Origin: Candidatus Hydrogenedentota bacterium
GTDB taxonomy: Bacteria > Hydrogenedentota > Hydrogenedentia > Hydrogenedentales > JAEUWI01
Direction of reading: 5' to 3'
NCBI GenBank assembly: GCA_034669905.1
Contig: JAXMOL010000029.1
Span: forward strand, 1-64,000
DNA length: 64,000 nucleotides
Positions 6,029 to 24,414 of the stretch are shown here, piece after piece. A program made the translations under genes and the position numbers. The notes beneath the pieces were generated by a model. It saw only the letters and a program-made list of their open reading frames with translations, was not told the DNA's origin and ran no database searches. Positions within the stretch are counted from its first letter, which is position 1, and every line of letters starts with the position of its first letter.

Positions 6029-6448
6029 CTAGTTATAACCCCGTTTACTGTGGGCGCCCAGCCGTGCGAGGGCGCGGGCGAGGGCCCGTTCGGCCCGTTC
6101 CCAATCCAGATCTTCCGGGGGCTTGCGGAGCCGTGTCTGGGCCCGCTCCTGGGCTTCTGTGGCCCGTTCCGGATCAATGTCATCCCCGGGCTCGTAAAAG
6201 CTGGCCAGCACAACCACGCGGTCGGGCATGACTTCGGCGAAGCCACCATGAACCGCGAAGTGATGCGCGTTGCCTTCTGCATCCGAGGCGATGAGCACGC
6301 CGGGCGTCAGGGTAGAAAGCAGGGGGGTGTGTTCCGGGTGCACGGCGAAAACGCCCGCGGCACCGGGGACGACCACCTCGGTCACCTCGAGGATGAATTG
6401 GGGCTTTTCCGGCGCACAGATTTCCAGGTGGAGTGTTGGCTGGGCCAC
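6029..6448 (-). CDS. atpC: ATP synthase F1 epsilon subunit
   Basis: VVVPGAAGVFAVHPEHTPLLSTL, FAVHGGFAEV, C-terminal helical hairpin; follows atpD. Confidence 0.95.
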   Translation of the reverse strand: MAQPTLHLEICAPEKPQFILEVTEVVVPGAAGVFAVHPEHTPLLSTLTPGVLIASDAEGNAHHFAVHGGFAEVMPDRVVVLASFYEPGDDIDPERATEAQERAQTRLRKPPEDLDWERAERALARALARLGAHSKRGYN

Positions 6449-6450
6449 GA

Positions 6451-7887
<1,437 letters not shown>

Positions 7888-7931
7888 TCACCCGAGCGGG
7901 GAGGGGGCCGGAATCATCGCGCAGTGTTTGT

Positions 7932-8786
7932 TTAAAGGGCTTCCGCGCCGCTGATCACCTCGATTAGCTCAGTGGTGATGGCATTCTGGCGCGCACGGTT
8001 ATATTGCAGGGTGAGTTTATCAATTACTTCGCCCGCGTTGCGGGTCGCTGAATCCATGGCGGTCATCCGGGCGCCCAATTCACTGGCGCTGGATTCCAGG
8101 AGGATACGGTGCATCTGGGTTTCGAGATTGCGCAGCAGCAGGGCGTCGAATACTTCTTCCTGGTTGGGCTCGTAGAGATAGTCCAGGCGCGCTTCCGCGT
8201 CGTCTCCCTCTTCGGGGAGGAAGGGGAGGAGGCGTTCGACGGTGATATTCTGCTGGACGGCCGACCGGAATTCGTTGTAGACGCAGTAGACGGCGCCCGT
8301 CTTGCCCTGGGCATACTCTTCCGCGATGTCATCAATGATGCTCCGGGAGAGGGGCAGGGGTTGGTCGGTCATCCCCGTGAAGTTTTGGCGAATGGTCACG
8401 GGGTGGCGTTTCAACGCCTCGAGTCCTTTGCGGCCGATGACGGTGAGCTGGACTTCCTTGTCATGGAAATCTTCGCGAATGGCCTGCATGGTGCGGTTGA
8501 CGATACCCGCGTTAAAGCCGCCACAGAGGCCCTTGTCAGAATTGACGACAATGATGCCGATCTGCTGGGCGTTTCCGTGGGTCAGCAGCGGGTGGGCATC
8601 CAAATCGGCGCAGCGGGTAATGTGTCCGACCAGATCACGCATATGGAAGGCGTAGGGCCGGGCCTGCTGGATGGCCGCCTGGGCACGGCGGAGCTTGGAG
8701 GCGGCGACCATCTTCATGGCCTTCGTGATTTTCTGCGTGCTCTTGACGCTGCCAATGCGGCGTTTTATGTCGCGAAGATTGGCCAT
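7932..8786 (-). CDS. atpG: ATP synthase F1 gamma subunit
   Basis: KITKAMKMVAASK, DKGLCGGFN, RQNAITTELIEVISGAEAL. Confidence 0.98.
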   Translation of the reverse strand: MANLRDIKRRIGSVKSTQKITKAMKMVAASKLRRAQAAIQQARPYAFHMRDLVGHITRCADLDAHPLLTHGNAQQIGIIVVNSDKGLCGGFNAGIVNRTMQAIREDFHDKEVQLTVIGRKGLEALKRHPVTIRQNFTGMTDQPLPLSRSIIDDIAEEYAQGKTGAVYCVYNEFRSAVQQNITVERLLPFLPEEGDDAEARLDYLYEPNQEEVFDALLLRNLETQMHRILLESSASELGARMTAMDSATRNAGEVIDKLTLQYNRARQNAITTELIEVISGAEAL

Positions 8787-8789
8787 GGA

Positions 8790-10325
8790 CTATTTCTCTT
8801 CCGCGTTTCCGCGGTGGCGGACTTCAAACTGTTCCGTGTAGTGCTTGAGGGCTTTGTCCAACTGGGGCTTCAACTCTTTGCTGAGCTCCCCGGCGTTGCG
8901 GAGGGCGTCAAACACGTCTTTCGCTTCGGTTTCAAAGTGGTGGTAGAGCTCTTCCTCATAGCGGCGTACGGCGCCGACGGGCACGTTGTTGAGGTAGCCG
9001 GAGGTGGCCGCATAAATGATGAGGACCTGCTTCTCGACGGAGAGCGGGGCGTATTGGGGCTGTTTGAGAATTTCTACGAGGCGCTGTCCCAGGTTCAACT
9101 GGAGCTGGGTCGCGCGGTCGAGGTCACTGCCAAACTGGGCGAAGGCTTCCAACTCACGGAACTGGGCCAAATCCAGGCGGAGCGTGCCGGAGACCTTTTT
9201 CATGGCCTTAATCTGGGCGTTGCCGCCTACACGGGAAACCGAGATGCCCGGGTTGATAGCGGGGCGTACGCCAGAGTAGAAAAGGTCATTCTCCAGGAAG
9301 ATCTGTCCGTCGGTGATGGAAATAACGTTGGTCGGGATATAGGCGGAAACGTCGCCTGCCTGGGTTTCAATAATGGGCAGGGCGGTGAGGCTGCCGCCGC
9401 CTTGGGCGTCGCTCAACTTTGCGGCGCGCTCCAGCAGCCGGGAGTGGAGGTAGAACACATCGCCGGGATAGGCTTCGCGGCCCGGAGGACGGCGAAGGAG
9501 CAGGGAAAGCTGACGATAGGCCACGGCGTGTTTGGAAAGATCGTCATAGATGGCGAGGACGTGTTTGCCCTTGTCGCGGAAGTATTCGCCCATGGCGGCG
9601 CCGGAATAGGGGGCCAGGTACTGGAGGGGGGCGGGTACCGAGGCGGAGGCGGCGACGACGATGGTGTAGTCCATGGCGCCGTGCTCTTTCAGCTCGTTGA
9701 CCACCTGGGCGACCGTCGAGCGCTTCTGTCCAATGGCGACATAAATGCAGATGACGTCTTCGTTTTTCTGGTTGAGGATGGTGTCGATGGCGATGGCCGT
9801 CTTACCGGTCTGGCGGTCACCGATAATGAGTTCGCGCTGGCCCCGACCGATGGGGGTCATGGCGTCGATGGCCTTGACGCCGGTCTGAAGGGGCTCGGTA
9901 ACGGGCTGACGATCCACGATGCCGGGGGCGATGCGCTCCACGGGGTTCGTTTCCGTCGATTCGATCGGGCCACGGCCGTCGATAGGGTCGCCGAGGGCGT
10001 TGACGACGCGACCGATGAGGGCATCCCCTACGGGCACGGATGTGATAGTGCCCGTGCGTCGGACGGTATCCCCTTCGGAGATCTTTTCGTACTCGCCGAA
10101 CAGCACGGCACCGACGTTGTCCTCTTCGAGGTTGAGGGCCATGCCCTTTACCCCATGGGGAAAGTCGAGGGTCTCGCCGGCCATGACATTGGCCAATCCA
10201 AAGACACGGGCGATACCGTCACCCGCCTGGATAACCGTTCCGACTTCGGAAACATCGACCGTATCGTGAAAATCGGTGATCTGCTGTTTAATGATTTCGG
10301 TGATTTCAGTAGCCTGGATTTTCAT
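8790..10325 (-). CDS. atpA: ATP synthase F1 alpha subunit
   Basis: GDRQTGKT P-loop, [24 protein letters not shown]. Confidence 0.99.
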
Positions 10326-10879
10326 CCGCCTAGATTCTCCTCTGGCAGCAGGGATTGCTTGAGTCGCTCGATGCGAGCGCGGACGCTGCCGTCGATAATC
10401 GTTCCACCAATCTGGGCGATAACACCGCCCAGCAGGTCTGGATCAACAGCGTGGTCAATGCGTACATGCATCCCGGAGAATTTTTCCAGGGACGCGATAA
10501 TTTCGTTTCGTTGGGTGTCGGTAAGCGCGATGGCCGAGGTGACCTGGGCACTGACGCGGTTGAGCCGGGCATCGGTCTGGGTCGCGAAGAGGCTCGTGAC
10601 GTCGGGCAAGATGCGGGCCCTTCGCCGCTGCACCAGTGCGGCCACCAATCTCTTGAGTCGGGGGTCTGCGCCGAGCTTGTCCAGGATGGCATCGAGAATA
10701 GCGACCTGTGTCCTGGTTGGCACGGCCGGATTCCCGATGATTCCCTGAAGGGCGTCGCTTTCCAGCAGGGTCTCGGAGAAGGAGCTCAGGATTTCGAGGG
10801 TAGGCTCGAGGGCCTGATCATCTTCGATCGATTCACTCAGGCTGCGGGCATAGCGATAGGCAACCAGGTAATTCTTCAT
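10322..10879 (-). CDS. atpH: ATP synthase F1 delta subunit
   Basis: VAYRYARSL start; [23 protein letters not shown]; position between b and alpha. Confidence 0.95.
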
Positions 10880-11643
10880 GCCTGTGCCTCCACGTCGTGG
10901 GTAAACTGTTGGATCAAGGCGTCGTGACGTTCCTGACTGTCATTGGCTTTTGCCTGGGCCGTGAGGGCCTCTATCGCCTGGTGCACCAGTTCCCGTTTCA
11001 ACGCCAGTTCGGCGGCGTGTACTTCGGCTTTCTTGCGTTCGGTCAGTTCGCGCTCATGGAGTCCCACGCTATAGTGGTTGGCCTCGGCCAGTTCGGCGAG
11101 TTCACGCTCCAGGCGTCGTTCGGTCTGTTCGCTGACCTTCAGTTCCTCTTCATGCACATGGGCGAGTTTATCTTCCACGCTCGCCCGGCGCCCCAGGGCC
11201 GACTTGCGCGAGCGGGCGGCCTGGTTAATCTTGTCGCGAAGCTCTTCGATTTGTTCGTCCAGAAAGCGCAGCAAAGGGGCTTTGGCGAGACGGAGGACCA
11301 ATACGACCACGAGGGTGGCATTGAAGATCTCGAAGAAGAGGGTGTAGAGGTGGATCCGGTGTTGCTCTGCCTGGAAGTCCTCGGTGGCTTCGTATTCCGC
11401 AACGAGGGCAACCCGACGGCCGAGCTCGGGATTGGCTTCCAGATCGAAGAGATGGGGGCGTTGCACGTAGTGCTTATAGTCGTCGCTCTTGATGGCTTCC
11501 AGATAGCGCTCATGGGCGGCACGGTGGGTGCTGCGATAGGCCTCGGAGAGCCCCGGGGGTCCGAGGAGCCAGTTCACGCCTATCCACCCGAGCAGCGCAA
11601 CGCTGACCAACAGGATGAGGAATTGCTTTGTATTGCGATTCAC
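10876..11643 (-). CDS. atpF: ATP synthase Fo subunit b with an N-terminal extra TM helix and soluble insert
   Basis: Second TM ..EIFNATLVVVLVLRLAKAPLLRFLDEQIEEL followed by a coiled coil; operon position; 255 aa is long for b. Confidence 0.75.
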   Translation of the reverse strand: MNRNTKQFLILLVSVALLGWIGVNWLLGPPGLSEAYRSTHRAAHERYLEAIKSDDYKHYVQRPHLFDLEANPELGRRVALVAEYEATEDFQAEQHRIHLYTLFFEIFNATLVVVLVLRLAKAPLLRFLDEQIEELRDKINQAARSRKSALGRRASVEDKLAHVHEEELKVSEQTERRLERELAELAEANHYSVGLHERELTERKKAEVHAAELALKRELVHQAIEALTAQAKANDSQERHDALIQQFTHDVEAQA

Positions 11644-11646
11644 AGG

Positions 11647-12066
11647 CTACTCCAACTCCAGTTTTTTGGCCATGGCATGGTGGATATCACCGGAAAGGGC
11701 ATCAAACTGATCACGCTGGCCGTCAATCTCTTTCGCGAGTGCCTGTGCCAGGGTGGCAATCTCTTGCTCGGCTTTTGCCTTAAAGGCCGCCACGTGGGCG
11801 TGGTGCTCTTCCTGGGCCTGGCGGTGGGCGCGCCCGAGGCGCACGCTGGCTTCCCGGTGGATTCGGGCGATCTTCGCACCGTACTCGTCCTCCAGGGCGG
11901 TGGCTTCTTCGCCGGCTTTGATGGCCGTTTGTTTGTCGTCCGCGATCTGATCATTCCGCCGATCCATCAGGGCGAGGAGGGGCGTAAAGATAAGGCGGTG
12001 CATGGCCCCGAGAAAGGCGAGGAACATGACCAGCAGGACCACTATGGTGAAGTTTACCGATACCAT
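11647..12066 (-). CDS. ATP synthase Fo subunit b'
   Basis: SVNFTIVVLLVMFLAF..LIFTPLLALMDRR followed by a coiled coil; typical b' start. Confidence 0.85.
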   Translation of the reverse strand: MVSVNFTIVVLLVMFLAFLGAMHRLIFTPLLALMDRRNDQIADDKQTAIKAGEEATALEDEYGAKIARIHREASVRLGRAHRQAQEEHHAHVAAFKAKAEQEIATLAQALAKEIDGQRDQFDALSGDIHHAMAKKLELE

Positions 12067-12085: not shown

Positions 12086-12421
<336 letters not shown>

Positions 12422-12494: not shown

Positions 12495-13478
12495 TCAACC
12501 CACCACGTAAAGGAGGGCGAGGGCAATAATCAGGGCATAAATCGCGGTGGACTGGGAAACGGCCTGTCCGATGAGCATGGTGCGCAGAATCAGCGCGTCT
12601 TTGTCGGGGCGCAATGCGGTGGCGGCACAACCTTTCGCGGCGGTGAGGCCACTACCGATTCCCGGGCCAACGCCCCCGAAGCCGACCGCGATGGCCGCGC
12701 CGAATACCTGGGCGAAGCCGAGCAGTCCGGGGTTCAAATCCCCCAGGGCAAACATCATGATAAAGGCGACGAGCATGCCGAAAATCGCGGGCGTTTCACA
12801 TACGGCCTGACCAATCAGCATGGTGCGCAGGGTGACACCATAGGCCAGGGGCCAGCGTCCAATACCATCCACGGCGCCACCGGCGGTCTGTCCCGAGCCG
12901 ATGCCCGAGCCCAGCGCGCTTACGCCCATGGCGAGTCCGGCACTGATGTAGATGCCCATGGTGGGCAGGTCGGTGCCGTTCTGGGCGGTGAGAATGAGGA
13001 TGAGGGAAACGACCAGGGCGAAAATACTGGGGGACTGGGCGACGGCCTGACCGATAATCATGGACTGGGTGAGCTTGGGGCTCCGTGCGGGGTTTCGGGC
13101 GAATCCGGCGCAGGCATTGCCTGCGGGCCAGCCGCAACCGAGGCCACTGCCGAAGGTGCCGAAGCCAATCGAGAGTCCAGCACCGAGGAGCGCGGCGAAG
13201 TAGTTGCCACCAATGAGGTCGAGGTTGGCGGGGGAGACCACGATGATGAAGAGGCCAATGACCAGGGCGAATACGGCGGCACCCTCGCCCACGGCCTGTC
13301 CGATGAGCATGGTGCGGAGCATTTCGCGCTGCACTTTGGGCTGGCGCATGATGGCGTGGTTGGCCATGCCGGCGGCATTACCCATGCCGATGGCGGCACC
13401 GATGCCGCCGAAGCCGAGGGCGACACCCGCGCCAGCGAGTTTGCCGAGAATTAGCCATGTGTGTGGTTCGAGGTCCAC
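12495..13478 (-). CDS. atpE: Atypical ATP synthase subunit c with four fused hairpins (8 TM)
   Basis: Four repeats of GxGxGxG...R-x-P...M(L/I)IGQAV; essential position is E65, Q148, E228, Q309. Confidence 0.9.
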   Translation of the reverse strand: MDLEPHTWLILGKLAGAGVALGFGGIGAAIGMGNAAGMANHAIMRQPKVQREMLRTMLIGQAVGEGAAVFALVIGLFIIVVSPANLDLIGGNYFAALLGAGLSIGFGTFGSGLGCGWPAGNACAGFARNPARSPKLTQSMIIGQAVAQSPSIFALVVSLILILTAQNGTDLPTMGIYISAGLAMGVSALGSGIGSGQTAGGAVDGIGRWPLAYGVTLRTMLIGQAVCETPAIFGMLVAFIMMFALGDLNPGLLGFAQVFGAAIAVGFGGVGPGIGSGLTAAKGCAATALRPDKDALILRTMLIGQAVSQSTAIYALIIALALLYVVG

Positions 13479-13539: not shown

Positions 13540-14310
13540 CTATTTGATGGCCACCGCGATGTAGGTCAGGGTGAGCATGGTAAATACGAAAGCCTGCACG
13601 GTGCCGACGAAGAAAATGAAAAAGAGATCGAGGCCTACCGCGAGAATGCTGAAGTGGTAGACCAGATTGGAAACAACAATAATGATAATGCTGCCGCCCA
13701 CAATGTTTCCGAAGAGTCGGAAGGAAATGGAGACGACTTTGGCGAGTTCACCAATAATATTGAGGGGGAAGAAAAAGATGGCCGAGAGTTTGCCGGCGAT
13801 TTTGGCGCCGCCGGTGGCCTCGGGCTGGTCCCACATGGGCCCGAGCAATTCTTCGACGTAACCGCCCATGCCCTTGGTCTTGATGGCACACCACGTGGCG
13901 ATAAACATACCCAGGAGTCCGAGGCCGAGGGTACAGTTAATGTCGGCCGTGGGCTCTTCGAAGTAGTGGGTGGGCACGAAGCCGATGAAGTTGCTGAGGA
14001 TCAGGTAGAGGAAGAGGGTGCCGATGAGGGGAAAGAAACGGCGGTTTTTTTCGCGCGTTTCCAGTTCCAGGGAGCTGGTCACCAGGTTGTCAAAGATACC
14101 GGTGAAGAGCTCGACGGCTAGTTGACCCCGCGCCGGGACCATGGCAAACTTGCGCACGGCGAGGCGGGCGAGCACCAGAAGGACCAGCATCACGATGGTC
14201 GCGTTGAACACGGTGAGGATATTGACCCCGCCCAGGGGGATCGGGATATCTGTGAATGGCACGTAGTACCAAGTGAGTCTTTCGCCGATGGATTCCATGC
14301 GACTACACAT
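13540..14310 (-). CDS. atpB: ATP synthase Fo subunit a
   Basis: PTADINCTLGL, PLNIIGELAKVVSISFRLFGNI (essential Arg), VQAFVFTMLTLTYI; start may instead be 14298. Confidence 0.96.
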   Translation of the reverse strand: MCSRMESIGERLTWYYVPFTDIPIPLGGVNILTVFNATIVMLVLLVLARLAVRKFAMVPARGQLAVELFTGIFDNLVTSSLELETREKNRRFFPLIGTLFLYLILSNFIGFVPTHYFEEPTADINCTLGLGLLGMFIATWCAIKTKGMGGYVEELLGPMWDQPEATGGAKIAGKLSAIFFFPLNIIGELAKVVSISFRLFGNIVGGSIIIIVVSNLVYHFSILAVGLDLFFIFFVGTVQAFVFTMLTLTYIAVAIK

Positions 14311-14689
14311 CTCTCCGCGTGTTGCCCAGCCTCGTAAACGCCAAGGTGATCATGACGATTTGAACAAAGAAAATCCCGATCACCGCTGCGATAAGGCCAT
14401 GATAGAGTTCCCGGTCTAACGTGTAGGCCTTGTAGATCGCAAGCGCATAGAAGAATAAGCGGACGAACGTCCACTTAACCGCTGAGGATTGTAGCTGGGT
14501 GGCATCGGAGGTTGCAAGTTTCTCAACGTTTCTGCCGGTAATCCAGAAGCCGAGGGCGCCGGCCAGGCCCCCCATGAGGACGCTCTTGGCCACGACGGGA
14601 GACCAATAAAAGGTGGCCGCGCAGGTGACCAGCGAGAGGGTCATGGTGTAGCGCACGACGGCCAGGCGAAATGCTTTCAGGGTGTCCAC
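14303..14689 (-). CDS. atpI: ATP synthase protein I (4-TM)
   Basis: 128-aa hydrophobic protein immediately upstream of atpB. Confidence 0.75.
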   Translation of the reverse strand: MDTLKAFRLAVVRYTMTLSLVTCAATFYWSPVVAKSVLMGGLAGALGFWITGRNVEKLATSDATQLQSSAVKWTFVRLFFYALAIYKAYTLDRELYHGLIAAVIGIFFVQIVMITLAFTRLGNTRRDV

Positions 14690-14724: not shown

Positions 14725-14958
14725 CTATCGGGGAGGGCTTGCGCGCAACAACAACCAGACTGCCATGGCCAGTCCGAGCACCAGGCCCGTGAGAATTCCT
14801 GCGGCGGTTAGCAGTCCATTCGTCTGAAAATGCTTGTCGAGGTTGATTCCGGCCCATGTGCCTGTCAATATATTACCTGTGATGACTAAGCCCACCAGGG
14901 CGACGAGTCGCATGGCATTTCGGATGTCGGATCCGTCGCGATTGTGGGGTGGAGTCAT
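14725..14958 (-). CDS. AtpZ/AtpI-family small membrane protein
   Basis: Two TM helices with GTWAGINLDKHFQT motif; first gene of the atp operon. Confidence 0.8.
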   Translation of the reverse strand: MTPPHNRDGSDIRNAMRLVALVGLVITGNILTGTWAGINLDKHFQTNGLLTAAGILTGLVLGLAMAVWLLLRASPPR

Positions 14959-15076: not shown

Positions 15077-15583
15077 GTGAAACGGGTTAAGGTACTTTTT
15101 GTTTGTTTGGGAAATATCTGTCGTTCACCCACGGCGGAAGGGGTGTTTCGGGCGTTGGTCGAAAAAAAAGGGCTGGGAGACCGCATCGAAATTGACTCGG
15201 CGGGCACGAGCGGATGGCATCAGGGCGAGGCACCCGACCCGCGTTCGCAAGAAGAGGCCCTCCAGCATGGGGTCGATTTAAGCGATCAGCGCTCCCGGGT
15301 GGTCGTTTCGCGGGATTTTACCCATTTTGACTATATCTGCGCGATGGACAGTTCGAACTTGCGGGAACTGAAGCGGAGCTGCCCTATCGGATATGGGGGA
15401 CGGCTCTATCGCTTCACCGATTTTGCCCCCGATCTGGATATTCAGGATGTACCCGACCCCTATTATGGGGGGGACGATGGTTTCTTGAAGGTGTATCAGA
15501 TTATTGAGGCCAGCGCGGTGGGCTTGCTCACCCATATTCGGGAACACGATCTGGAATGTTTGGCAGGTCAGGAATCACAGTAA
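15077..15583 (+). CDS. Low-molecular-weight protein tyrosine phosphatase
   Basis: VLFVCLGNICRSPTAE P-loop, IDSAGT, DVPDPYYG. Confidence 0.95.
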   Translation: MKRVKVLFVCLGNICRSPTAEGVFRALVEKKGLGDRIEIDSAGTSGWHQGEAPDPRSQEEALQHGVDLSDQRSRVVVSRDFTHFDYICAMDSSNLRELKRSCPIGYGGRLYRFTDFAPDLDIQDVPDPYYGGDDGFLKVYQIIEASAVGLLTHIREHDLECLAGQESQ

Positions 15584-15607
15584 ACGATATCGACCAGGGA
15601 AGGTACC

Positions 15608-16465
15608 GTGTGCGATAAACTGCAGGAAGTGGTGACCCAGGCCCTGGGCCAGCATATTACCCATCGCAGCCCCCTGAGTGGGGGCTGCATTGGGGAGGTT
15701 TTTCGACTGCGTCTGGAAGACGGGCGCGATGTGGTCGCCAAACTGGATCGCAGTAGTGCGCCCCGGCTGGATATCGAGGGCTACATGCTGCAGTACCTCA
15801 CGGCTCACAGCAGGTTGCCCGTGCCCCCCGTGATCCTGTCCACGCCGGAAGTGCTGCTGATGGACTTCGTTCCCGGGGATAGCCACTTCGTAGCGTCGAG
15901 CCAACGTCATGCGGCCCAGTTACTTGCGGCGATGCACGGGGTTCGGGGCGAGGCCCATGGCCTGGCGCGGGATACCCTGATAGGTTCGCTCCATCAACCC
16001 AATCCGTGGACGGCGTCGTGGGTCGAATTTTTCCGCACGCACCGGCTCCTTCATATGTCGGAGATGGCGCGTCAGGAAGGGGTTATGGGGGCCCAATTGC
16101 TCCGCCGTATGGAGCGATTTGCCGGCGATTTGGATGATTTTCTGGAGGAGCCGGCCTATCCTTCGCTGCTGCACGGCGATGTGTGGACCACCAATGTGCT
16201 GGCTTCCAAGGGGCAGATCACGGCCTTTATTGACCCGGCGGTCTACTATGGGCACCCGGAGATTGAGTTGGCGTTTATTACTCTTTTTTCCACCTTCGGG
16301 CCGGCCTTTTTCGATGCCTACAACGCCCTGCGTCCCCTGCGCCCCGGATTTTTCGAGACCCGGCGGGATATCTACAATCTCTATCCCCTGTTGGTCCATG
16401 CGCGGTTGTTTGGGGCGAGTTACCTGAACAGCGTGGAAGGGACCCTGTCGCGGCTGGGGTACTGA
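15608..16465 (+). CDS. Fructosamine kinase family protein
   Basis: LSGGCIG, PSLLHGDVWTTN, FIDPAVYYGHPEIELA, YNLYPLLVHARLFG. Confidence 0.92.
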   Translation: MCDKLQEVVTQALGQHITHRSPLSGGCIGEVFRLRLEDGRDVVAKLDRSSAPRLDIEGYMLQYLTAHSRLPVPPVILSTPEVLLMDFVPGDSHFVASSQRHAAQLLAAMHGVRGEAHGLARDTLIGSLHQPNPWTASWVEFFRTHRLLHMSEMARQEGVMGAQLLRRMERFAGDLDDFLEEPAYPSLLHGDVWTTNVLASKGQITAFIDPAVYYGHPEIELAFITLFSTFGPAFFDAYNALRPLRPGFFETRRDIYNLYPLLVHARLFGASYLNSVEGTLSRLGY

Positions 16466-16477
16466 GGGGGGAATTGC

Positions 16478-19400
16478 CTACGAATTGCTTCCTGCCAAAT
16501 CGGAATGCAACCCTTGCAAGGTCTCGAACAACCCTTCGATTACGTTGTCGTGACCGGCAAACAGTTCATCGGGCCCGCCCGCATGCAATCCGCTGAAGGG
16601 TGGCTCATACAGCGCCGACGCCTCCATCACGCCTCGGGCCGTGAGTTGCTCGATGACCATCTCTACAAATCGAATCTGCGCCGGGCTCAGGCTGCGGTCG
16701 TTCAGGAATTGTGAAAATGCCGCCTGTGCCGCGGCCCGATCCATCCCCACCAGACTTCGAACAAACCAGGCCAGGGAAGGGGCACCGCTACGCTCCAACA
16801 AATGCCCCAGCAGTGTGTTGCCATTTTCTTCACCGATCTCCGCCAGGGTTTGCTCCAGCCCGGTCAGATCGGTTTCCGTAAGGGGTTGGTTGGTGCGCAG
16901 CCGCTGGATGACCAAGTGGTCGAGATGGCTCCGCAGGTAGTCTTGGACTTTCTTTTCATACTGTATTCCAGTCATTTTCGGCATGAGCACCGCCTGCTCC
17001 TCGCGCACGCCCAAGACCTCATCGTTGAAATCGGTTACGACAATCTTTCGTTTCTTCCGGTCCAGAAAGGGCATAAGCCCGCGCAAGCGTAGCCGCATCT
17101 CTTCCAGGGCCGCTAAGTCTACGCCTTCCCAAAACAGGGTCTCCTGAATCGCCGCCAGGTAGGCGAGCTGCTCCTTTACGGCCGGAATCGCCGATTTCTC
17201 CTCCAGCATCATGGCGATTTCTATCACCCGCTGCCGATAGCGCTCCAACACGCTGTAGTCATTCTGGGCCACCGCCAACTGCATTTGCAGCGCCATCAGG
17301 TCAAATTGGCGCGACTCAATATCCTCCACCGGCAGGGCGCTCGGCAAGCCCGCCACCTCCTGTTGCAGGGTCTCCCGGTCCGACTCGGACAAGGATTCCC
17401 AGGCGTCGGGCTGCTGGAAGCGTTCCACCGTCTCCAGGTGCATGCGCACGATGAAGTTATCCCGGTTCATGGCGAGCAATTCCCCATGGAGCGTTTTGGC
17501 GAGGGCGTTCCCCAGGGAACCCTTGGGGTCCAGCGCCGTGTCGCCCTGGACATGGCCGATCAACTGCACCCGCGCGCGGAAGAGTCGTTTCCCGAGCGAC
17601 ACTCCGCCGCTGCCCTCCAACCCCTGGGGGTTCTCCCGGAAAAAATCGAAGTTAAAGCAGAAGTCGAAAATGCGAAAATCCGTCTTGTCATCGCCGGGGC
17701 CGAAGAGGTCGGGACAGAGGCGCGTACCGCGACCAATCATCTGCCAGAACTTTATCTTGGAGTAGACCGGTTTGAAAAAGACCAGGTTGGCCACCTCGGG
17801 CACGTCGATGCCCGTGTCCAGCATGTCCACCGAAATGGCGATGTGGGGGGGCTTGTCCTTCTGCGAAAAATCGTCGAGGATGCTCTGGGGATACTTCGCG
17901 CGGTTGTCGATTACCCGGGCGAAATGGCCCTTGTAGTGGGGGTAATGGTGATTGAAGCGCTCCTCGATGAACACCGCGTGATCATGATTGCGTGCAAAGA
18001 TAATCGTTTTGGCCAGTCGGTCGCCCCCGTCCACCGTGTGGCCATTTTCCATCAGGTGCTGGAGCACCTTGTCCACCGTGTCGCGATTAAAAAGCCAGCT
18101 ATTAACAGCCGCCGCATTTACTGTCGTCGGCATGGCCGGTTCGTTGCTCTCGTCGCCCCAGTCGAGCCCTTCCCACTGTGCTTGTTCCTCCGGGCTGAGC
18201 GAATCGTAATCAATCCCGTCCCGGGGGAATTTCAGGTTCACCTGCTGCGCTCGGGGCGGCACAAGGAAGCCATCGTCCACGGCCGTCTGCAATTCGTAGG
18301 CATCGGTGGGCACCCCTGGTTCCAGGTCGAATAGATCGTAGGTATTCCGGTCTACTTCCTCCCGGGGCGTCGCCGTCAGGCCCACCAGGAGCGAGTCAAA
18401 GTAGTCAAAGATGGCGCCATACTTCTGATAAACCGAGCGGTGGGCTTCGTCGATGATCACCAGGTCAAAATGGCCTACGCCAAAACGCGCCGTGCCCTCG
18501 TCCACCTGATCGATGAGGTTCAGTATGGTGGGGTAGGTGCACACGTACACCCGGCCATCCGTGTTCTTTTCCGTCACCAGGTTTACCGGGCTCGATTCGG
18601 GCAGGTGGGTCTTGAAGGCGTTACAGGCCTGGTTCACCAGCGACACCCGGTCCGCCAGGAAGAGGGCCCGCTTCACCCAGCCCGCCCGCTGCAACACATC
18701 GACCAGCGCGATGGCCGTCCGCGTCTTGCCCGTGCCCGTGGCCATGACCAGCAGGGCCTTCCGGCGTTTATCGGTGAACTGGGCGAAGATGCTGCCAATC
18801 ACCCGCTTTTGGTAGTAACGCTCGACAATCGCGTCTTTCACAGCGCTCACCGCTGGCGGCACTTGCTGCGAGCGCCGTACCATGAGCCGCTGTAGCTCGT
18901 CCTTCTTGTAGAAGCCTGCCACCTTCCGGTGTGGATAGTCGGAGTCGTCCCACAGCCAGGTCTCGTAGCCGTTGGTGTAGAAGATGAAGGGACGTTGCCC
19001 GTGCATCGTTTCCAGGCAATCGGCATAGAGCTTGGCCTGCTGCCGTCCCACTTCAGGGTCAACCGTGCTCTTTTTCGCCTCCACCACGGCCAGGGGCTTG
19101 CCGTCGTCGCCCCAGAGTACATAATCCACATAGCCCACGCCCTTGTTGTTGGGCATACCCGTGACTTTGTATTCCTGGTCGTTGGTGCCGTCCAGTGGCC
19201 AACCCGCACGGCGGAGCTCCACGTCGATGAGGTAGCGGCGTGTTTCGGCCTCGGAATAATCGTGGGTGTCTTGCGTCGCCTCCGATTCCGCGCGGATCGC
19301 CGCCAGTTGGGCGCGCACGGCCTGCAATTCGGCGTCGAGGGCGATTTTTTCCTGCTGCTCCTTCAAGGTCGCTTCGTTCTGTGCCGCCAGCTCCGCCTCC

Positions 19401-19870
19401 AGTTTCTCCAGCTTTGCCCGAGGCACCACGGCCGCCGGGTGTAGGGGCTTGGGCACGCGCTCATCCTGCCAGGCCGCCCCATCGCGCGGCGCGTCCGGCG
19501 CATAGGTCCGCGTGAGCCAGTAACACAGATGGTGGAGTTCCTTCACCACCTGAAGGGCATCATACTGGCGGACAGGCTTGGTATGGTGGACCGCCTGGTT
19601 GCCCATCTTCAAGATGACCCGGGCCTTTTGGAATACGGACCCAGGCAGCAAGTTCTGAAAAGTGGGCTCATGGATCAGGGCCCCGAGTTTTTCGTCGTAG
19701 GGCATTTTCAGGCTGGGGTCGTGGGCATAAAGCCAATGGACCACCGCCTCCAGGGTGAAGCGCGCGTGGAAGCAGGCCGCCCGGGGGTCGCCATGGATAT
19801 GACCCTCTGCCTTGCCCGCCGACTCGGCGATGGGGCGGAACAGTTTTGGAAGGAATGTGAAGTTACTCAT
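16478..19870 (-). CDS. hsdR: Type I restriction enzyme R subunit (EcoEI/EcoAI-like, N-terminal DUF4145-like domain)
   Basis: Nuclease DYVL..VVEAKK; helicase motifs MATGTGKT, DEAHRS, GLTATP, QMIGRGTR; start taken at MSNFTFL. Confidence 0.93.
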   Translation of the reverse strand: MSNFTFLPKLFRPIAESAGKAEGHIHGDPRAACFHARFTLEAVVHWLYAHDPSLKMPYDEKLGALIHEPTFQNLLPGSVFQKARVILKMGNQAVHHTKPVRQYDALQVVKELHHLCYWLTRTYAPDAPRDGAAWQDERVPKPLHPAAVVPRAKLEKLEAELAAQNEATLKEQQEKIALDAELQAVRAQLAAIRAESEATQDTHDYSEAETRRYLIDVELRRAGWPLDGTNDQEYKVTGMPNNKGVGYVDYVLWGDDGKPLAVVEAKKSTVDPEVGRQQAKLYADCLETMHGQRPFIFYTNGYETWLWDDSDYPHRKVAGFYKKDELQRLMVRRSQQVPPAVSAVKDAIVERYYQKRVIGSIFAQFTDKRRKALLVMATGTGKTRTAIALVDVLQRAGWVKRALFLADRVSLVNQACNAFKTHLPESSPVNLVTEKNTDGRVYVCTYPTILNLIDQVDEGTARFGVGHFDLVIIDEAHRSVYQKYGAIFDYFDSLLVGLTATPREEVDRNTYDLFDLEPGVPTDAYELQTAVDDGFLVPPRAQQVNLKFPRDGIDYDSLSPEEQAQWEGLDWGDESNEPAMPTTVNAAAVNSWLFNRDTVDKVLQHLMENGHTVDGGDRLAKTIIFARNHDHAVFIEERFNHHYPHYKGHFARVIDNRAKYPQSILDDFSQKDKPPHIAISVDMLDTGIDVPEVANLVFFKPVYSKIKFWQMIGRGTRLCPDLFGPGDDKTDFRIFDFCFNFDFFRENPQGLEGSGGVSLGKRLFRARVQLIGHVQGDTALDPKGSLGNALAKTLHGELLAMNRDNFIVRMHLETVERFQQPDAWESLSESDRETLQQEVAGLPSALPVEDIESRQFDLMALQMQLAVAQNDYSVLERYRQRVIEIAMMLEEKSAIPAVKEQLAYLAAIQETLFWEGVDLAALEEMRLRLRGLMPFLDRKKRKIVVTDFNDEVLGVREEQAVLMPKMTGIQYEKKVQDYLRSHLDHLVIQRLRTNQPLTETDLTGLEQTLAEIGEENGNTLLGHLLERSGAPSLAWFVRSLVGMDRAAAQAAFSQFLNDRSLSPAQIRFVEMVIEQLTARGVMEASALYEPPFSGLHAGGPDELFAGHDNVIEGLFETLQGLHSDLAGSNS

Positions 19871-20538
19871 GCAATGCCCCTTGCAACTAGTTGGGCGTGT
19901 CAAGGTGGTTTCCTATTGCCAACACTACGTATCAGAGCGTACTATAGCATATGAGTTCACTGCCAATCGGCGTTGAATCTATCGAGGTTTCGGCCGCTGA
20001 GCCAGCGTAGCAAATCAGCGGTCTCTTGCTCATCCTGCGATTTCGCGGGGCGGGGCTTCGGAGGGGCTTTCGAAGGACGGGGGAGTACAACAATCTGTGG
20101 GATGCTCTTCGTGCCGCGCGATCTCTTGAGGGGGCGGCGGGAAGCGCCCTCGGGAGTTCGTGCGTAGGTCTAGCCACGGTCTCCGGGCGGTTAGCCATGG
20201 GCTCAGGTGTGAGGAAGACGCACGAACGCGTTTCGGCGCGACGGCGTCGCGGCCGAAGCGCGATCGCGCGGCACGGGGGAAGGAGAAAGAGACGCCGCGC
20301 CAACACGCTCTTTCCATTCACTATTCTAAATTCACCATTCACAATTCCCCACTCCCCTTGGTTGGTGTTGGGTCGCGACGTACAGCCGGTACAGTCCCAC
20401 CTTCGTCTGGCACGAAGGAGATGACAGTCCCTTACGGAAGACGCACGAACGCGTTTCGGCGCGACGGCGTCGCTTCCGAAGCGCGATCGCGCGGCACGGG
20501 GGGAGCCCATTCATAATTCACTATTCTAAATTCTAAAT

Positions 20539-20625
20539 TCATAATTCGCCGTTGAACGCGCGGGACTGCAATGAGGCGAACAGGGTGTCCAATTCCGGCA
20601 GGTGGGGCCCCATTCGGGTCTTTTG
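20539..20625 (-). pseudogene. Remnant 3' end of a second hsdS
   Basis: Translates QKTRMGPHLPELDTLFASLQSRAFNGEL*; 23 of 28 residues match the C-terminus of the intact HsdS. Confidence 0.85.
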
Positions 20626-20672
20626 GGTGCTTTATGCGTCGCGGTAATAATCCCAAGTTGCGAAGGTGCGCC

Positions 20673-20836
20673 AAAGTGGGTTGGCCTTCCAGGCTGACAC
20701 AACGTGTCCTCGACTTACCGGAATAACGCTCGTAACTAAAATGGTGGCCCAGCAATCCAGGGTGCTTCCTATGGCCTGTCGCCCCATAGGCTGTTTCGGG
20801 CGGTCGACATGACAGGCTGGAAGCCTATCCCACTTT
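20673..20836. repeat. REP doublet (REPIN-like) with inverted GTGGG ends
   Basis: aaagtgggttggccttccaggctgac ... gacaggctggaagcctatcccacttt. Confidence 0.6.
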
Positions 20837-20955
20837 GATCGTCGGGGGAAAGGCCTGGCCGCTTTCGATAGGGGCCGCGACGGCGTCGCTTCCGAAGCGC
20901 GATCGCGCGGCACGGGGGTGAGCCCATTCATAATTCACTATTCTAAATTCACTAT

Positions 20956-22155
20956 TCATAATTCGCCGTTGAAGGCGCGGGACTGCAATGAGGCAAACAA
21001 CGCGTCCAGCTCCGCCAGGTGGGCACGCATCCGCGCCTTTTGCGCCTCCACCGATTCCACGATGGCCGCGAATTCGCGCTGGAGCGCGAGGGGTGGAACG
21101 ATGAACTCAAACTTCCGAATTCCAGCAGTACTAAGATTGTAATTACCAGCAGTTGTCCTCGCTTCGCGGCGGACTCTGTGCCGGTAGCTCGGAAACTCTA
21201 TATGGTGCTTCAAAAATTCGCTCGTCAGACCTATGGACAACTTAACTCGACCTCGAATTAGGTAGGAAGCATAATAGCTTGGGCGAGTTCCGTCGAACCT
21301 TGCGCACCGACCGATATGGTCTGGATTTCCGTTGGAGCGAACGAAGAGTATATCGTCTAGCTGCAACTGAAGCTTTGTTGCCTCAGTACCATCGAGTTCA
21401 ACGAATTTCAAATCTTCCCAATCAATTTGTCCACCAATTACGTTGGGAATTCTCAGAACTGGGAGTGCTTTTCCAGTTGGCGTATTAATAGACTTCCTGG
21501 ATGTACCATACGTCAAGTCTTCGAAAGCTTCTGTGCCTCGTACAACTTCCCACCCCATCGGATTGGTGACGGGATCGCCAAACATCTCCAGGAAGGTGGA
21601 TTGGAGGAGGGTGTCGAGCTCGGCGAGGGAGGCGCGGCGACGGGCCCGCAACCCGTCCGCCTCATCCAGGATCGCCGCGATTCGACGCTGCTCCGACAGC
21701 GGCGGCAGGGGAATATCCATGGTCTTGATTTGCCCCAGGCTTAGATTTGTAATCGTTCCCGTAACACCCCTTGACGCCATTTGGCGGTGCGCGTCGGACG
21801 TCTTTAGCCAATTGAGGACATATCTCTGACTTGCCTTACCGTTAAGCCTTAGAATTGCCACTGCCTGGTTACAATTCATAGGCAAATCACATTCGACAAC
21901 TGCAGCGCGTCCGATCGTTCCCGCTATAGAAACGAGCAAGTCCCCTTGCTGAATCTGGGACCGTTCCAGTGCAGAATGTGTAGCATTATCTATGAACAAA
22001 GGCTCTTTCGTTACATCGACCCTACCATCTATGAGATTCTGAACCCTGACAAAAGGAATGCCATAGTCAACGAACGAATAACCGATAGACGTCGGCGTAG
22101 TTCCTTTTGTGATCAGAGTCGACAATTCATTCATCTTGACTCGCGGCCACGTCAC
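20956..22155 (-). CDS. hsdS: Type I restriction-modification specificity subunit
   Basis: Two lower-GC TRDs; conserved IPLPPLSEQRRIAAILD, FLEMFGDPVTNPMGWE, PPLALQREFAAIV..LQSRAFNGEL. Confidence 0.95.
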   Translation of the reverse strand: MTWPRVKMNELSTLITKGTTPTSIGYSFVDYGIPFVRVQNLIDGRVDVTKEPLFIDNATHSALERSQIQQGDLLVSIAGTIGRAAVVECDLPMNCNQAVAILRLNGKASQRYVLNWLKTSDAHRQMASRGVTGTITNLSLGQIKTMDIPLPPLSEQRRIAAILDEADGLRARRRASLAELDTLLQSTFLEMFGDPVTNPMGWEVVRGTEAFEDLTYGTSRKSINTPTGKALPVLRIPNVIGGQIDWEDLKFVELDGTEATKLQLQLDDILFVRSNGNPDHIGRCARFDGTRPSYYASYLIRGRVKLSIGLTSEFLKHHIEFPSYRHRVRREARTTAGNYNLSTAGIRKFEFIVPPLALQREFAAIVESVEAQKARMRAHLAELDALFASLQSRAFNGEL

Positions 22156-23720
22156 TTCAACAACCCCTCCAATTCCTTCCGCCCCGCCGCAATCTCCTTT
22201 TCCAACGCCGCCAGGCGCTCCAAAATCACCTTCGGCGGGTCATGCTCCACCGCCTCATACTCCACCTCCTTATAGCGATTAATCGACAGGTCGTAGTCGT
22301 TCCCCTGAATCTCGGCCACGGGCACGACGAAGGACTGGTCCGTCCGGGCGCGCTTCCATTCCGGACTCTTCGGGCCCTTGTCCCGCAGGGACTGCCAGCG
22401 CAGTTGGATATCCGGCAGGTTGTTCACGGCGTGGATTTCTTCCGGCACGGCCTTGCCCTTGGCGAGGCATTGGGCAATCTTTTCCCTGGCGTCCCCGTTC
22501 CCCAACGGCGTGCGTTTGTCGTCGAGGGAGAAGCCATCGGCGCGCATGTCGTAGAACCAGACGCCGTCGGTGCCGCCGGAGTTGGTCTTGGTGAAGAAGA
22601 GGATGGCGGTGCTGACGCCGGCGTAGGGCTTGAAGACGCCGGAGGGCATGGAGACGATGGCGTCGAGCTTTTGCTCGTCCACGAGGATCTGGCGGAGGGC
22701 CTTGTGGGCCTTGCTGGAGCCGAAAAGGACGCCGTCGGGCACGATGACGGCGGCCCGCCCGCCGGTCTGCATGAGCCGGAGGAAGAGGGCGAGGAAAAGG
22801 AGCTCGGTCTTTTTTGTCTTGACGATCTGCTGGAGATCCTTCGCGGTGGATTCATAGTCCAGGCTCCCGGCGAAGGGCGGATTGGCGAGGATGAGGGAGT
22901 AGTTTTCTTCGTCGTCGTGGACGCCCTCGGAGAGGGAATCGCGGTAGCGGATATCGGGGTTTTCCACGCCGTGGAGGAGCATGTTCATGCTGCCGATGCG
23001 GAGCATGGTGTTGTCGAAGTCGTAGCCGTGGAAGGTGCCCGCGTTGAAGCGGCGGCGGGCCGATTCGCTGCGGTAGATATCATCGCCGTGGTGTTGGAGG
23101 AGGTATTCCGACGCGGCCACGAGGAAGCCCGCGGTGCCGCAGGCGGGGTCGCAGATTTTGTCTTTCGGCGTGGGGGCGCACAGGGCCACCATGAGCTGGA
23201 TGATGTGGCGGGGCGTGCGAAACTGGCCGTTTTGCCCGGCGCTGGCGATTTTGCTGAGCATGTATTCATAGAGATCGCCCTTGGTGTCGGCATCGTCCAT
23301 CTGGATCTGGTCGAGTTGGTCGACCACATTGGCGAGGACCCGGGCGGTGGGCATCATGAAGAGGGCGTCCTTCATGTGGTGGGTGTAGGTGGAGTCTTGG
23401 CCGTCGCCATCGCCACTGCGCCCGAGGGTCTTCATGAAGGGGAAGACTTCGTCGCGCACGATTTCGAACATTTTCTCGGGTGCCAACTCCTTGAAGCGGG
23501 ACCAGCGGAGGTGGTCTTGCTGGGGCGTGAAGACGGGGTTTTCGATGGGTTTCTTCGTCCGGGCTGCCTTTCGCTCGGCGAGGGTATGGAGCTCATCGAG
23601 CCGCTTGATGAAGAGGAGGTAGGTGAGCTGTTCGATGACGGAGAGGGGGTTGGAGATGCCGCCGGACCACATGGTGTCCCAGATGCGGTCTATCCTGGAT
23701 TTAAAATCGCCTGTGACCAT
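22152..23720 (-). CDS. hsdM: Type I restriction-modification N6-adenine methyltransferase
   Basis: GQFRTPRHII, DPACGTAGFL, ILANPPF; start at MVTGDFKSRIDRIW; overlaps the hsdS start. Confidence 0.95.
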   Translation of the reverse strand: MVTGDFKSRIDRIWDTMWSGGISNPLSVIEQLTYLLFIKRLDELHTLAERKAARTKKPIENPVFTPQQDHLRWSRFKELAPEKMFEIVRDEVFPFMKTLGRSGDGDGQDSTYTHHMKDALFMMPTARVLANVVDQLDQIQMDDADTKGDLYEYMLSKIASAGQNGQFRTPRHIIQLMVALCAPTPKDKICDPACGTAGFLVAASEYLLQHHGDDIYRSESARRRFNAGTFHGYDFDNTMLRIGSMNMLLHGVENPDIRYRDSLSEGVHDDEENYSLILANPPFAGSLDYESTAKDLQQIVKTKKTELLFLALFLRLMQTGGRAAVIVPDGVLFGSSKAHKALRQILVDEQKLDAIVSMPSGVFKPYAGVSTAILFFTKTNSGGTDGVWFYDMRADGFSLDDKRTPLGNGDAREKIAQCLAKGKAVPEEIHAVNNLPDIQLRWQSLRDKGPKSPEWKRARTDQSFVVPVAEIQGNDYDLSINRYKEVEYEAVEHDPPKVILERLAALEKEIAAGRKELEGLLK

Positions 23721-24069
23721 GGGGGTTCCTTGGAAAATGGTGTTACCGCCATCGCCGGGCGGGATTGGCCCGGTGTGGCACGGAATGTTATGTGTCCGCC
23801 GCCAAACGGAGGGTCTGACGGCCTGAACGCCGTGGATGGAGGATGGCACCCTATTGGGCGGCACCGCTCGACCTGGTGGTTTTTCCACGGGAGGGGAAGT
23901 ATTGCGGTTGTTGTTGGCAGGTGTCAATAGGGCTGCACGGTGGGCTATCTTCGCCGTCGGCGGGTGCATTAAGCGGCGCGGTGAATTTTCCATGGGAACG
24001 GCGGGGAAGGGTCTGTTATACTGAATTCTTTCCCTTTTATAGTAAACATTACCACCCGAAATGGACGTC

Positions 24070-24414
24070 ATGAGCGCTTTACCCCCCTGCCCGAAGTGTC
24101 ATTCTGAATTTACCTATGAAGACGTCAGTCTCCTGGTATGCCCCGAGTGTGCCCACGAGTGGTCTGCCGAGGCCCCCGCAGAAGAGGCGGGAGCCGGCGA
24201 GAAAGTCTATCGGGATTCGGCGGGCAATGTCTTGCAGGATGGCGATACGGTGACGGTGATCAAGGACCTGAAGCTGAAAGGATCGGGGGGCGTGGTGAAA
24301 ATCGGGACGAAGGTTAAGAACATTCGCCTGGTGGACAGCGATCACGATATCGACTGTAAGATTGATGGCTTTGGGGCCATGAGTCTGAAATCGGAGTTCG
24401 TGAAGAAGGGTTGA
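24070..24414 (+). CDS. phnA: PhnA/YjdM zinc-ribbon protein
   Basis: [52 protein letters not shown]. Confidence 0.92.

Follow-up and report, generated by a model that had tools for sequence, protein, structure and literature searches.

A conserved four-hairpin c subunit in an F-type ATP synthase operon of a Hydrogenedentota bacterium, a candidate variant of the hybrid Na+ rotor

What an ATP costs in energy is set by how many ion sites a ring contains, and the standard view holds that almost every step of an F-type rotor requires such a site. Hybrid rotors were surveyed by Brandt and Mueller in 2015, reportedly as pairs of one- plus two-hairpin subunits. In Acetobacterium woodii and Clostridium aceticum, the subunit c1 (PDB 4BEM chain J) shares a ring with nine c2/3 subunits, giving 10 Na+ sites and, in the available text of PMC7793690, 3.3 ions/ATP for A. 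woodii. How such sites are built is known from the c11 ring of Fusobacterium nucleatum, in which one subunit supplies Glu32 and Glu65 to hold the Na+ and its neighbour contributes Ser66 and the carbonyl of Val63 (PMC3692424, in part). For fused subunits, the ProAD rule correspondingly asks for [Q/E]...E in one hairpin and [S/T][S/T/Q]xxY in the previous hairpin (excerpt of the PMC11738941 supplement).

Published sources touch on longer c subunits in passing. ProAD acknowledges c/K subunits with at least two hairpins and, in the accessible part of PMC11738941, gives logos for one and two only; its data tables surely include such multi-hairpin genes as entries. An AlphaFold survey of ring sizes dropped sequences longer than 250 aa (10.1101/2024.02.27.582367, partial text), and a preprint mentions "several multi-hairpin structures" and A. 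woodii (excerpt of 10.64898/2026.10.01.756066). A four-hairpin c subunit in an F-type hybrid rotor was not found described in the full-text literature searched, which included parts of PMC7911925 and PMC3543383 and left most subscription journals outside its scope.

The c4 gene, its operon and its relatives

Within the window, the whole 64,000-nucleotide stretch of DNA analysed here, the gene at 12495–13478 on the minus strand (read from 13478 to 12495), hereafter c4, encodes 327 aa from a GTG start. A sequence-only reading had described a 327-aa gene with four c-type hairpins between atpB and atpE, and this description is exact, the strand being minus. The Pfam profile PF00137 (ATP-synt_C) matches c4 in four stretches, as that reading had expected, with an E-value of 1.3e-52 and 176 bits against a curated cut-off of 24; this score and the helical-hairpin model together place c4 among the subunit c proteins. 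The AlphaFold2 model, based on an alignment of 109 rows, folds into four helical hairpins (pLDDT 95.7, pTM 0.92).

Hairpin 1 (13245–13433, minus) carries M32, the loop RQP and E65 (codon 13286–13284) in the motif EGAAVF, and most orthologues have G or S instead of this E. Hairpin 2 (12996–13187, minus) has C115, the loop RNP and Q148 in QSPSIF and is without an acid. Hairpin 3 (12756–12947, minus) has S195, the loop RWP and E228 in ETPAIF; its acid is retained by about half of the orthologues, and W209 is present in 108 of 109. Hairpin 4 (12516–12704, minus) has S276 and Q309 followed by S310-T311-x-x-Y314 (QSTAIY), with S310, T311 and Y314 each found in 109/109 orthologues. The carboxylate positions (E65/Q148/E228/Q309) and the equivalents of position 32 (M32/C115/S195/S276) all read as had been claimed, as does the restriction of S-T-x-x-Y to hairpin 4.

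The further proposal that c4 is a doubled c1 has to be given up. Identity between its hairpins is flat at 35–40% (38% between hairpins 1 and 3, 40% between 2 and 4, 40% between 1 and 4), without the 1=3, 2=4 signal of such a doubling, and relatives have two, three, four, five or six hairpins with variable inner units. From these sequences, c4 would be better read as a first cap, variable inner units and a last cap.

c4 lies in a complete F1Fo set on the minus strand with the order atpQ/Z-I-B-c4-E-F'-F-H-A-G-D-C. The atpQ/Z-like gene (14725–14958, PF09527), atpI (14303–14689, PF03899) and atpB (13540–14310), whose product, subunit a, has the conserved Arg R198 in RLFGN, precede it. It is followed by atpE (12086–12409), which encodes from an ATG start a normal single-hairpin c with E56 and E89-S-T-G-I-Y (ESTGIY), a two-carboxylate Na+ motif conforming to the pattern [Q/E]...E[ST][STQ]xxY of Na+-coupled F1Fo enzymes, then by atpF' (subunit b', 11647–12066, PF00430), atpF (subunit b, 10876–11643), atpH (10322–10879), which encodes a full-length delta, and the F1 genes atpA, atpG, atpD and atpC (6029–10325). 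The atpF product was missed by Pfam and is grouped by the ESM Atlas with Hydrogenedentota b/b' clusters (score 0.96); its 255 aa include an additional N-terminal membrane helix and an insert of ~70 aa ahead of the usual anchor. The atpE product has an N-terminal extension of ~28 residues ending ...AVAQA, which is kept in relatives and looks like a putative cleavable leader. Two ORFs at 15077–16465 (plus) are divergent from the operon; by their motifs they look low-molecular-weight phosphatase-like and fructosamine-kinase-like. Upstream, at 16478–24071 (minus), motifs mark a type I restriction-modification-like cluster (R of 1141 aa, S of 399 aa, M of ~520–640 aa).

Among 30 genomes, c4 starts with GTG or TTG in 26, with ATG in two and at an uncalled codon in two, whereas the single c starts with ATG in 29/29 and has better ribosome sites than c4. 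The weak starts fit a low copy number of c4, an argument weakened by the GTG starts of the b and epsilon genes in the same operon. A scan for a separate promoter and terminator stayed near chance (2 against 1.3 and 6 against 3.5 expected), and c4 is treated as an ordinary operon member.

A protein search gave 1985 relatives; the best 120 of the 1985 and two window proteins were examined (122 proteins), and four hairpins were found in 110, five in four, six in seven and a single hairpin in one. These 110 sequences and the same a-c4-c gene order, which is repeated in other genomes, exclude an assembly or frame artefact for c4. Acid patterns in the 110 are GQQQ (49), GQEQ (37), SQEQ (9), SQQQ (7), EQEQ (4, two of which are the window's c4 and the representative of its cluster), with four singletons besides, and 56 of the 110 have no carboxylate at all. 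At position 65, the 109 aligned orthologues have G in 88, S in 16 and E in 5, and at position 228 Q in 57, E in 51 and D in one. E/Q/E/Q is thus a minority, local pattern (E65 in 5/109, E228 in 51/109), and the acid-free state of the relatives is more surprising than this local one.

GTDB holds 323 stretches encoding relatives. A complete ORF of 2–6 hairpins was present at 74 of the best 80 of these 323 loci, under record titles that name Hydrogenedentota, Thermodesulfobacteriota, Margulisiibacteriota, Cloacimonadota, Planctomycetota and others, some of which, e.g. Nitrospirales, may disagree with the GTDB placement. In the phylum of the host, 39 of 121 genomes have a c4 match at 1e-30, two of these being three-hairpin forms. 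A named species with a family member is Dethiosulfatarculus sandiegensis strain SPR, with five hairpins. A search for forms of 574–2000 aa, which is weak evidence, gave one match among 8000 candidates, an archaeal 13-hairpin A-type protein; the profile search also returned longer all-Glu c-type proteins of other lineages.

Several other arrangements were seen on the way. Six-hairpin EQQQQQ proteins, with five consecutive blind positions, stand beside a Na+-type c at L054, L056, L059, L066, L067 and L079, and the three genomes of this kind that were checked have one to three additional rotary ATPases each. Another large clade of four-hairpin proteins, in which E/Q/E/D or E/Q/E/E prevails (L153:5001-5966, L154-L164; P0183-P0271), which we take to be Dependentiae/Babelota, adjoins atpB on low-GC contigs; a single c was not detected at its 12 loci, the ORF lists being checked for L153 and L164. 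P0164 and P0166, the latter named Candidatus Gracilibacteria, are c-type proteins of 7 and 13 hairpins with Glu in each hairpin, and P0164 has W at expected G positions, suggesting TGA read as Gly; the two are possibly single-chain or half-ring rotors.

Selection, the history of E65 and the donor half-site

Comparison of c4 with five relatives gave dN/dS values of 0.039, 0.097, 0.171, 0.216 and 0.229, against 0.049–0.164 for c and 0.04–0.174 for a; all are rough, with dS near 1 and near saturation, and a sixth pair (L018) was saturated. Comparisons of delta, gamma and beta with L097 were left out as spurious short alignments, that locus ending before those genes. c4 is less constrained than c in four of the five pairs. 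Relaxed selection, named beforehand as grounds for abandoning the sequence-only reading, was looked for and did not appear, the five pairs spanning 0.04–0.23, and on these values c4 is under purifying selection. Across 109 orthologues, 46 columns of c4 are invariant, and the cytoplasmic loops retain RQ in hairpin 1 and RN in hairpin 2 in 109/109.

In a tree of 28 genome-derived c4 sequences (two of 30 being without a called start) from which residues 60–85 were removed, the three E65 forms are nested within G-bearing relatives of the same genus with support 1.0. A 119-row tree with distant outgroups, in which long branches are flagged, speaks against a regain in placing the E65 forms at the root. 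We suggest that E65 was probably regained in this lineage. Gene conversion from atpE as its source was rejected on the tract itself, which in c4 is EGAAVF and not ESTGIY.

By the ProAD rule, none of the four sites on c4's own acid positions is a full Na+ site. Because Na+ sites are shared between neighbours, hairpin 4 would complete the site of the following normal c, with S310, T311 and Y314 as the predicted donor half. The earlier statement that c4 has no complete Na+ site stands for sites with an acid from c4 and falls short in that hairpin 4 would donate its S-T-x-x-Y to the next normal c. Among complete multi-hairpin ORFs, the donor motif [ST][STQ]xxY is present in 70 of 74 last hairpins and in 6 of 207 non-last ones. 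Under the Na+ site rule, such a motif lacks a partner inside one chain unless a normal c follows, and we regard this asymmetry of motifs as the strongest evidence that c4 borders normal c subunits.

The neighbouring gene has the matching motif: among the best 80 of the 323 loci, 75 of the 76 with both genes have an adjacent single c with the full Na+ motif, and of the four loci with no single c, three are cut by a contig end. As a control, 20 F-type regions were read, most of them taken from those genomes of the phylum in which c4 has no match; 17 have a single c only, two a three-hairpin gene plus c, and in one c was not reached. The full Na+ motif is present in 2 of the 17 single c subunits of these c4-free operons from the same phylum. 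In a set of c4-free operons (L165-L167, L169-L170, L174-L176, L179, L183-L184), the two glutamates are kept and the donor motif is altered (ESNSIY, ESVAIY, ESVVIY).

Energetics, genome setting and alternative readings

On balance, we think that one copy of c4 sits in an Acetobacterium-type hybrid Na+ ring and lowers Na+/ATP to ~2.3–3; a mixed ring with fewer ion sites, as had been proposed from the sequence, fits the evolutionary pattern. As a low-copy subunit, most likely present once, c4 would take up four successive hairpin places in a ring otherwise made of two-carboxylate c subunits. Residue changes would plug its inner faces (M, C or S at position 32, Q replacing E, P replacing T, F replacing Y); its first hairpin would face the S/T/Y of the preceding c, and its last would serve the next c as described above. 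For an 11-hairpin ring, a size assumed from solved relatives, c4 and seven c would provide seven full Na+ sites and 2.33 Na+/ATP, rising to as much as 3.0 ions/ATP if E65 and E228 carry cations too. The cation at E65 and E228 would probably be H+, since the other ligands are missing.

Such a geared-down enzyme would hold a larger sodium-motive force as an ATP-driven pump and would require one as a synthase. At 32–50 kJ/mol, and with the ring size assumed, the threshold for synthesis is estimated at 142–222 mV with seven sites (2.33 ions/ATP) and at 111–173 mV with 3.0 ions/ATP. E228 and the probably regained E65 would create an alternating, V-type-like pattern with at most one acid-free hairpin in a row, and by this pattern the ring should turn in both directions. 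Acid-free relatives would present four blind hairpins consecutively, favouring pumping: in a constant-torque estimate with ring size and load assumed, four blind steps amount to ~131 degrees undriven and a load of 14–22 kT, a barrier that pumping would not meet. The fused c10 ring of Bacillus PS3 loses ATP synthesis when one hairpin carries E56Q (PMC8809890, in part), and synthesis across four blind positions is accordingly difficult to explain; an enzyme whose c is of V type does make ATP (available text of PMC9171764). Given this enzyme, and given that two acid-free hairpins never follow each other in E/Q/E/Q, we favour a geared-down hybrid Na+ ring, able to run both ways in this lineage and inclined to pumping in the acid-free relatives.

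The host genome (G000) encodes a Thermus-like V/A-ATPase, whose K subunit (ETIVVL) is without a Na+ motif, two heme-copper oxidases and Na+-NQR (NqrA, two NqrB/RnfD genes). The complex I 49-kDa subunit had no match in this genome; G022, from the same genus and without an F-type operon, has one. V/A-ATPase genes lie within ~15 kb of a heme-copper oxidase gene (G000:C26:43298-63858). Of eight further genomes from the genus, four (one of them closed) have no match to F-type gamma or c4, so that the operon is dispensable in the genus. With PF16886 as the probe for V/A-ATPases (PF01496 at 1e-10 being too strict), a match to the A subunit is lacking in 19 of 39 genomes with c4 as against 5 of 82 other genomes of the phylum. 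The idea that c4 is always accessory to a V/A synthase was rejected on these 19.

Among 30 genomes in which c4 was read, a heme-copper oxidase is present in 16/16 acid-bearing and in 4/14 acid-free ones; ten of the acid-free genomes have neither an oxidase nor a V/A match and four have both. These counts are of relatives and not independent, 4 of the 10 oxidase-less genomes belonging to one genus, and the genomes are 80–100% complete, with absences falling in ones that are 80–97% complete. A matched pair inside one genus (G110, G118) points in the same direction, and cytochrome bd had no match in 5/5 oxidase-less genomes searched. Acid retention thus appears to track terminal oxidases, as a pattern and not a test. 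In the closed, single-contig genome G017, which carries NqrA/NqrB, no rotary ATPase operon was found other than the acid-free GQQQ one, two further PF00006 matches being, we infer, FliI and Rho. G037, acid-free and with no V/A match, has a nitrite-reductase-family match. Both organisms may need ATP synthesis, which would count against a pure-pump reading of the acid-free forms.

Alternatively, c4 could serve as a template during assembly: its four hairpins would form a pre-curved arc on which, with AtpI, the ring is nucleated, and c4 would afterwards be released or have no role beyond assembly, the working rings consisting of normal c. We consider this unlikely. The weak start codons of c4 and the loss of every acid in 56/110 relatives of the best-120 set would suit a template, and the kinetic problem of genomes such as G017 would disappear. 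Deletion of c1 in A. woodii reportedly impaired assembly, and the stabilisation of c11 rings by Na+ binding could explain a conserved donor half-site even here. The two-hairpin relative c1, however, remains in the mature ring at 1:9 (PMC9171764, in part; PDB 4BEM), and neither the gain and loss of outer-helix acids in step with terminal oxidases nor the invariant F1-facing loops would be expected of a released template.

Slightly less probable still is a brake, in which c4 would enter a fraction of rings, or enter them under some conditions, and park a blind arc at subunit a, blocking Na+ leak or wasteful hydrolysis while c4-free rings work. That one dead hairpin halts the PS3 enzyme (excerpt of PMC8809890) speaks for it, as do the four of eight same-genus genomes without F-type gamma or c4. 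So does the arrangement in Dethiosulfatarculus and another Desulfarculia genome (Desulfobacterota), where an ordinary Fo module is joined by a second one containing the multi-hairpin gene: L058/L125 (Dethiosulfatarculus sandiegensis) and L129 combine one F1 set with a module a-c5(EQQQE)-c(Na+ motif)-b and a module a-c (Q...ESLCIY), which suggests swappable motors. A brake is harder to square with c4 as an ordinary operon member with no promoter or terminator signal above chance, and both the donor half-site, which is conserved, and the acids, which were regained, imply interfaces that bind ions and not a dead end.

We give yet lower odds to geometry instead of gearing, i.e. a ring of more than 11 hairpins, or a second a-subunit that drives while the blind arc passes the first, leaving ion/ATP normal. 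In c4 hairpins 1–3, glycine or proline of the inner-helix motif GPGxGxG is replaced by alanine or serine; a 15-hairpin ring would yield 3.7 ions/ATP, and a two-stator F1Fo exists in Chloroflexus (PMC12002316, in part). Two-stator enzymes of that type have a shortened delta N-domain (same excerpt), whereas the OSCP profile matches delta here over 1–172 of 172, on which ground this type was rejected for the present operon. The partner c, moreover, resembles c11-type subunits, and hairpins 3–4 fit the c11-type c1 better than V-type rings. Finally, a decaying tandem duplication or assembly artefact without function, to which lost catalytic residues and the patchy distribution (39/121 phylum genomes) might point, is very improbable, being already contradicted by dN/dS of 0.04–0.23, by 46 invariant columns in 109 orthologues and by the recurrence of this architecture across many phyla and independent assemblies.

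Returning to the geared-down hybrid ring, we put forward, tentatively and with more doubt than conviction, a generalization: that there may be a widespread class of bacterial F-type rotors in which one long fused c puts up to 4–5 consecutive ion-free positions (130–165 degrees, more than one catalytic step) in a working ring, and in which lineages tune Na+/ATP and direction by gain or loss of single carboxylates, being acid-free in oxidase-less species, where the enzyme can be the only rotary ATPase, and alternating in aerobes. Current motor models leave a long stretch moving few or no ions unexplained. The only solved natural hybrid ring that we found has a single gap, compared with 1–5 consecutive blind positions across the c4 family, and this natural series, under strong selection in many phyla, makes the limits of ion-free turning and of ion/ATP directly testable. 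If c4 is in the ring, ion/ATP values taken from single-c sequences are wrong for these organisms.

Comparison with known rotors

V/A-type K/c subunits and archaeal multi-hairpin proteolipids (one site on two hairpins or, in methanogens, three or 13 hairpins) resemble c4 in having fused hairpins and lost acids, and the E/Q/E/Q of c4 alternates as in V/A-type subunits. V/A-type enzymes, however, usually have at most one blind hairpin in a row, and c4 lies in an F-type operon and fits the F-type c1 better. Like N-ATPases, the c4 enzyme might work next to another ATP synthase and pump Na+ at the expense of ATP. Identity with an N-ATPase was rejected: the c4 operon follows the canonical order, has b in two genes and encodes a full-length delta separately, and the N-type order is beta-epsilon-X-X-a-c-(b delta)-alpha-gamma with delta absent or fused. 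The neighbouring atpE has the same E32/E65/S66/T67/Y70 set as the F. nucleatum c11 ring (PDB 3ZK1), which is a homo-oligomer of single hairpins, unlike the ring that c4 would enter.

The closest solved relative of c4 is A. woodii c1, both by sequence (E 5e-24) and by fold, so that the likeness proposed by the sequence-only reading is borne out, including a partner c of Na+ type. Residues 171–327 of the c4 model superpose on the ring-embedded c1 (4BEM) with 1.4 Å over 155 residues and Z 15.7, compared with 2.1–3.1 Å for the same region on two-hairpin V-type c/K chains; the low rmsd to 4BEM may come from AlphaFold's training set. Like atpE1 of A. woodii and C. aceticum, c4 sits between atpB and a Na+-type atpE, and both systems combine a multi-hairpin c and a single-hairpin Na+ c in one F-type operon between atpB and atpF. 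In both, the last hairpin has exchanged E for Q and kept the donor motif (Q309-S-T-A-I-Y314 in c4, QTTGIY in 4BEM c1), and the terminal motifs ETSGIF/QTTGIY of c1 recur in the first and last hairpins of the c4 family.

The differences are equally clear. c1 has exactly two hairpins (four helices) and c4 has four. The first hairpin of c1 has Q/E at 32 and E at 65, i.e. Q...E, whereas c4 has M32 in 109/109 and E65 here, with G or S in 104/109, and no complete Na+ site on its own acids. One blind position in c1 compares with 2–4 in most c4 orthologues (0–1 acids). The partner c is of E/E type in the c4 operon and Q/E in A. woodii, and the c4 host additionally has oxidases and a V/A-ATPase. We conclude that c4, for which we infer ring membership, copy number and ring size, is a real, conserved variant of the hybrid rotor that would work like c1 and departs from it in two defining features, the number of hairpins and the make-up of the first one.
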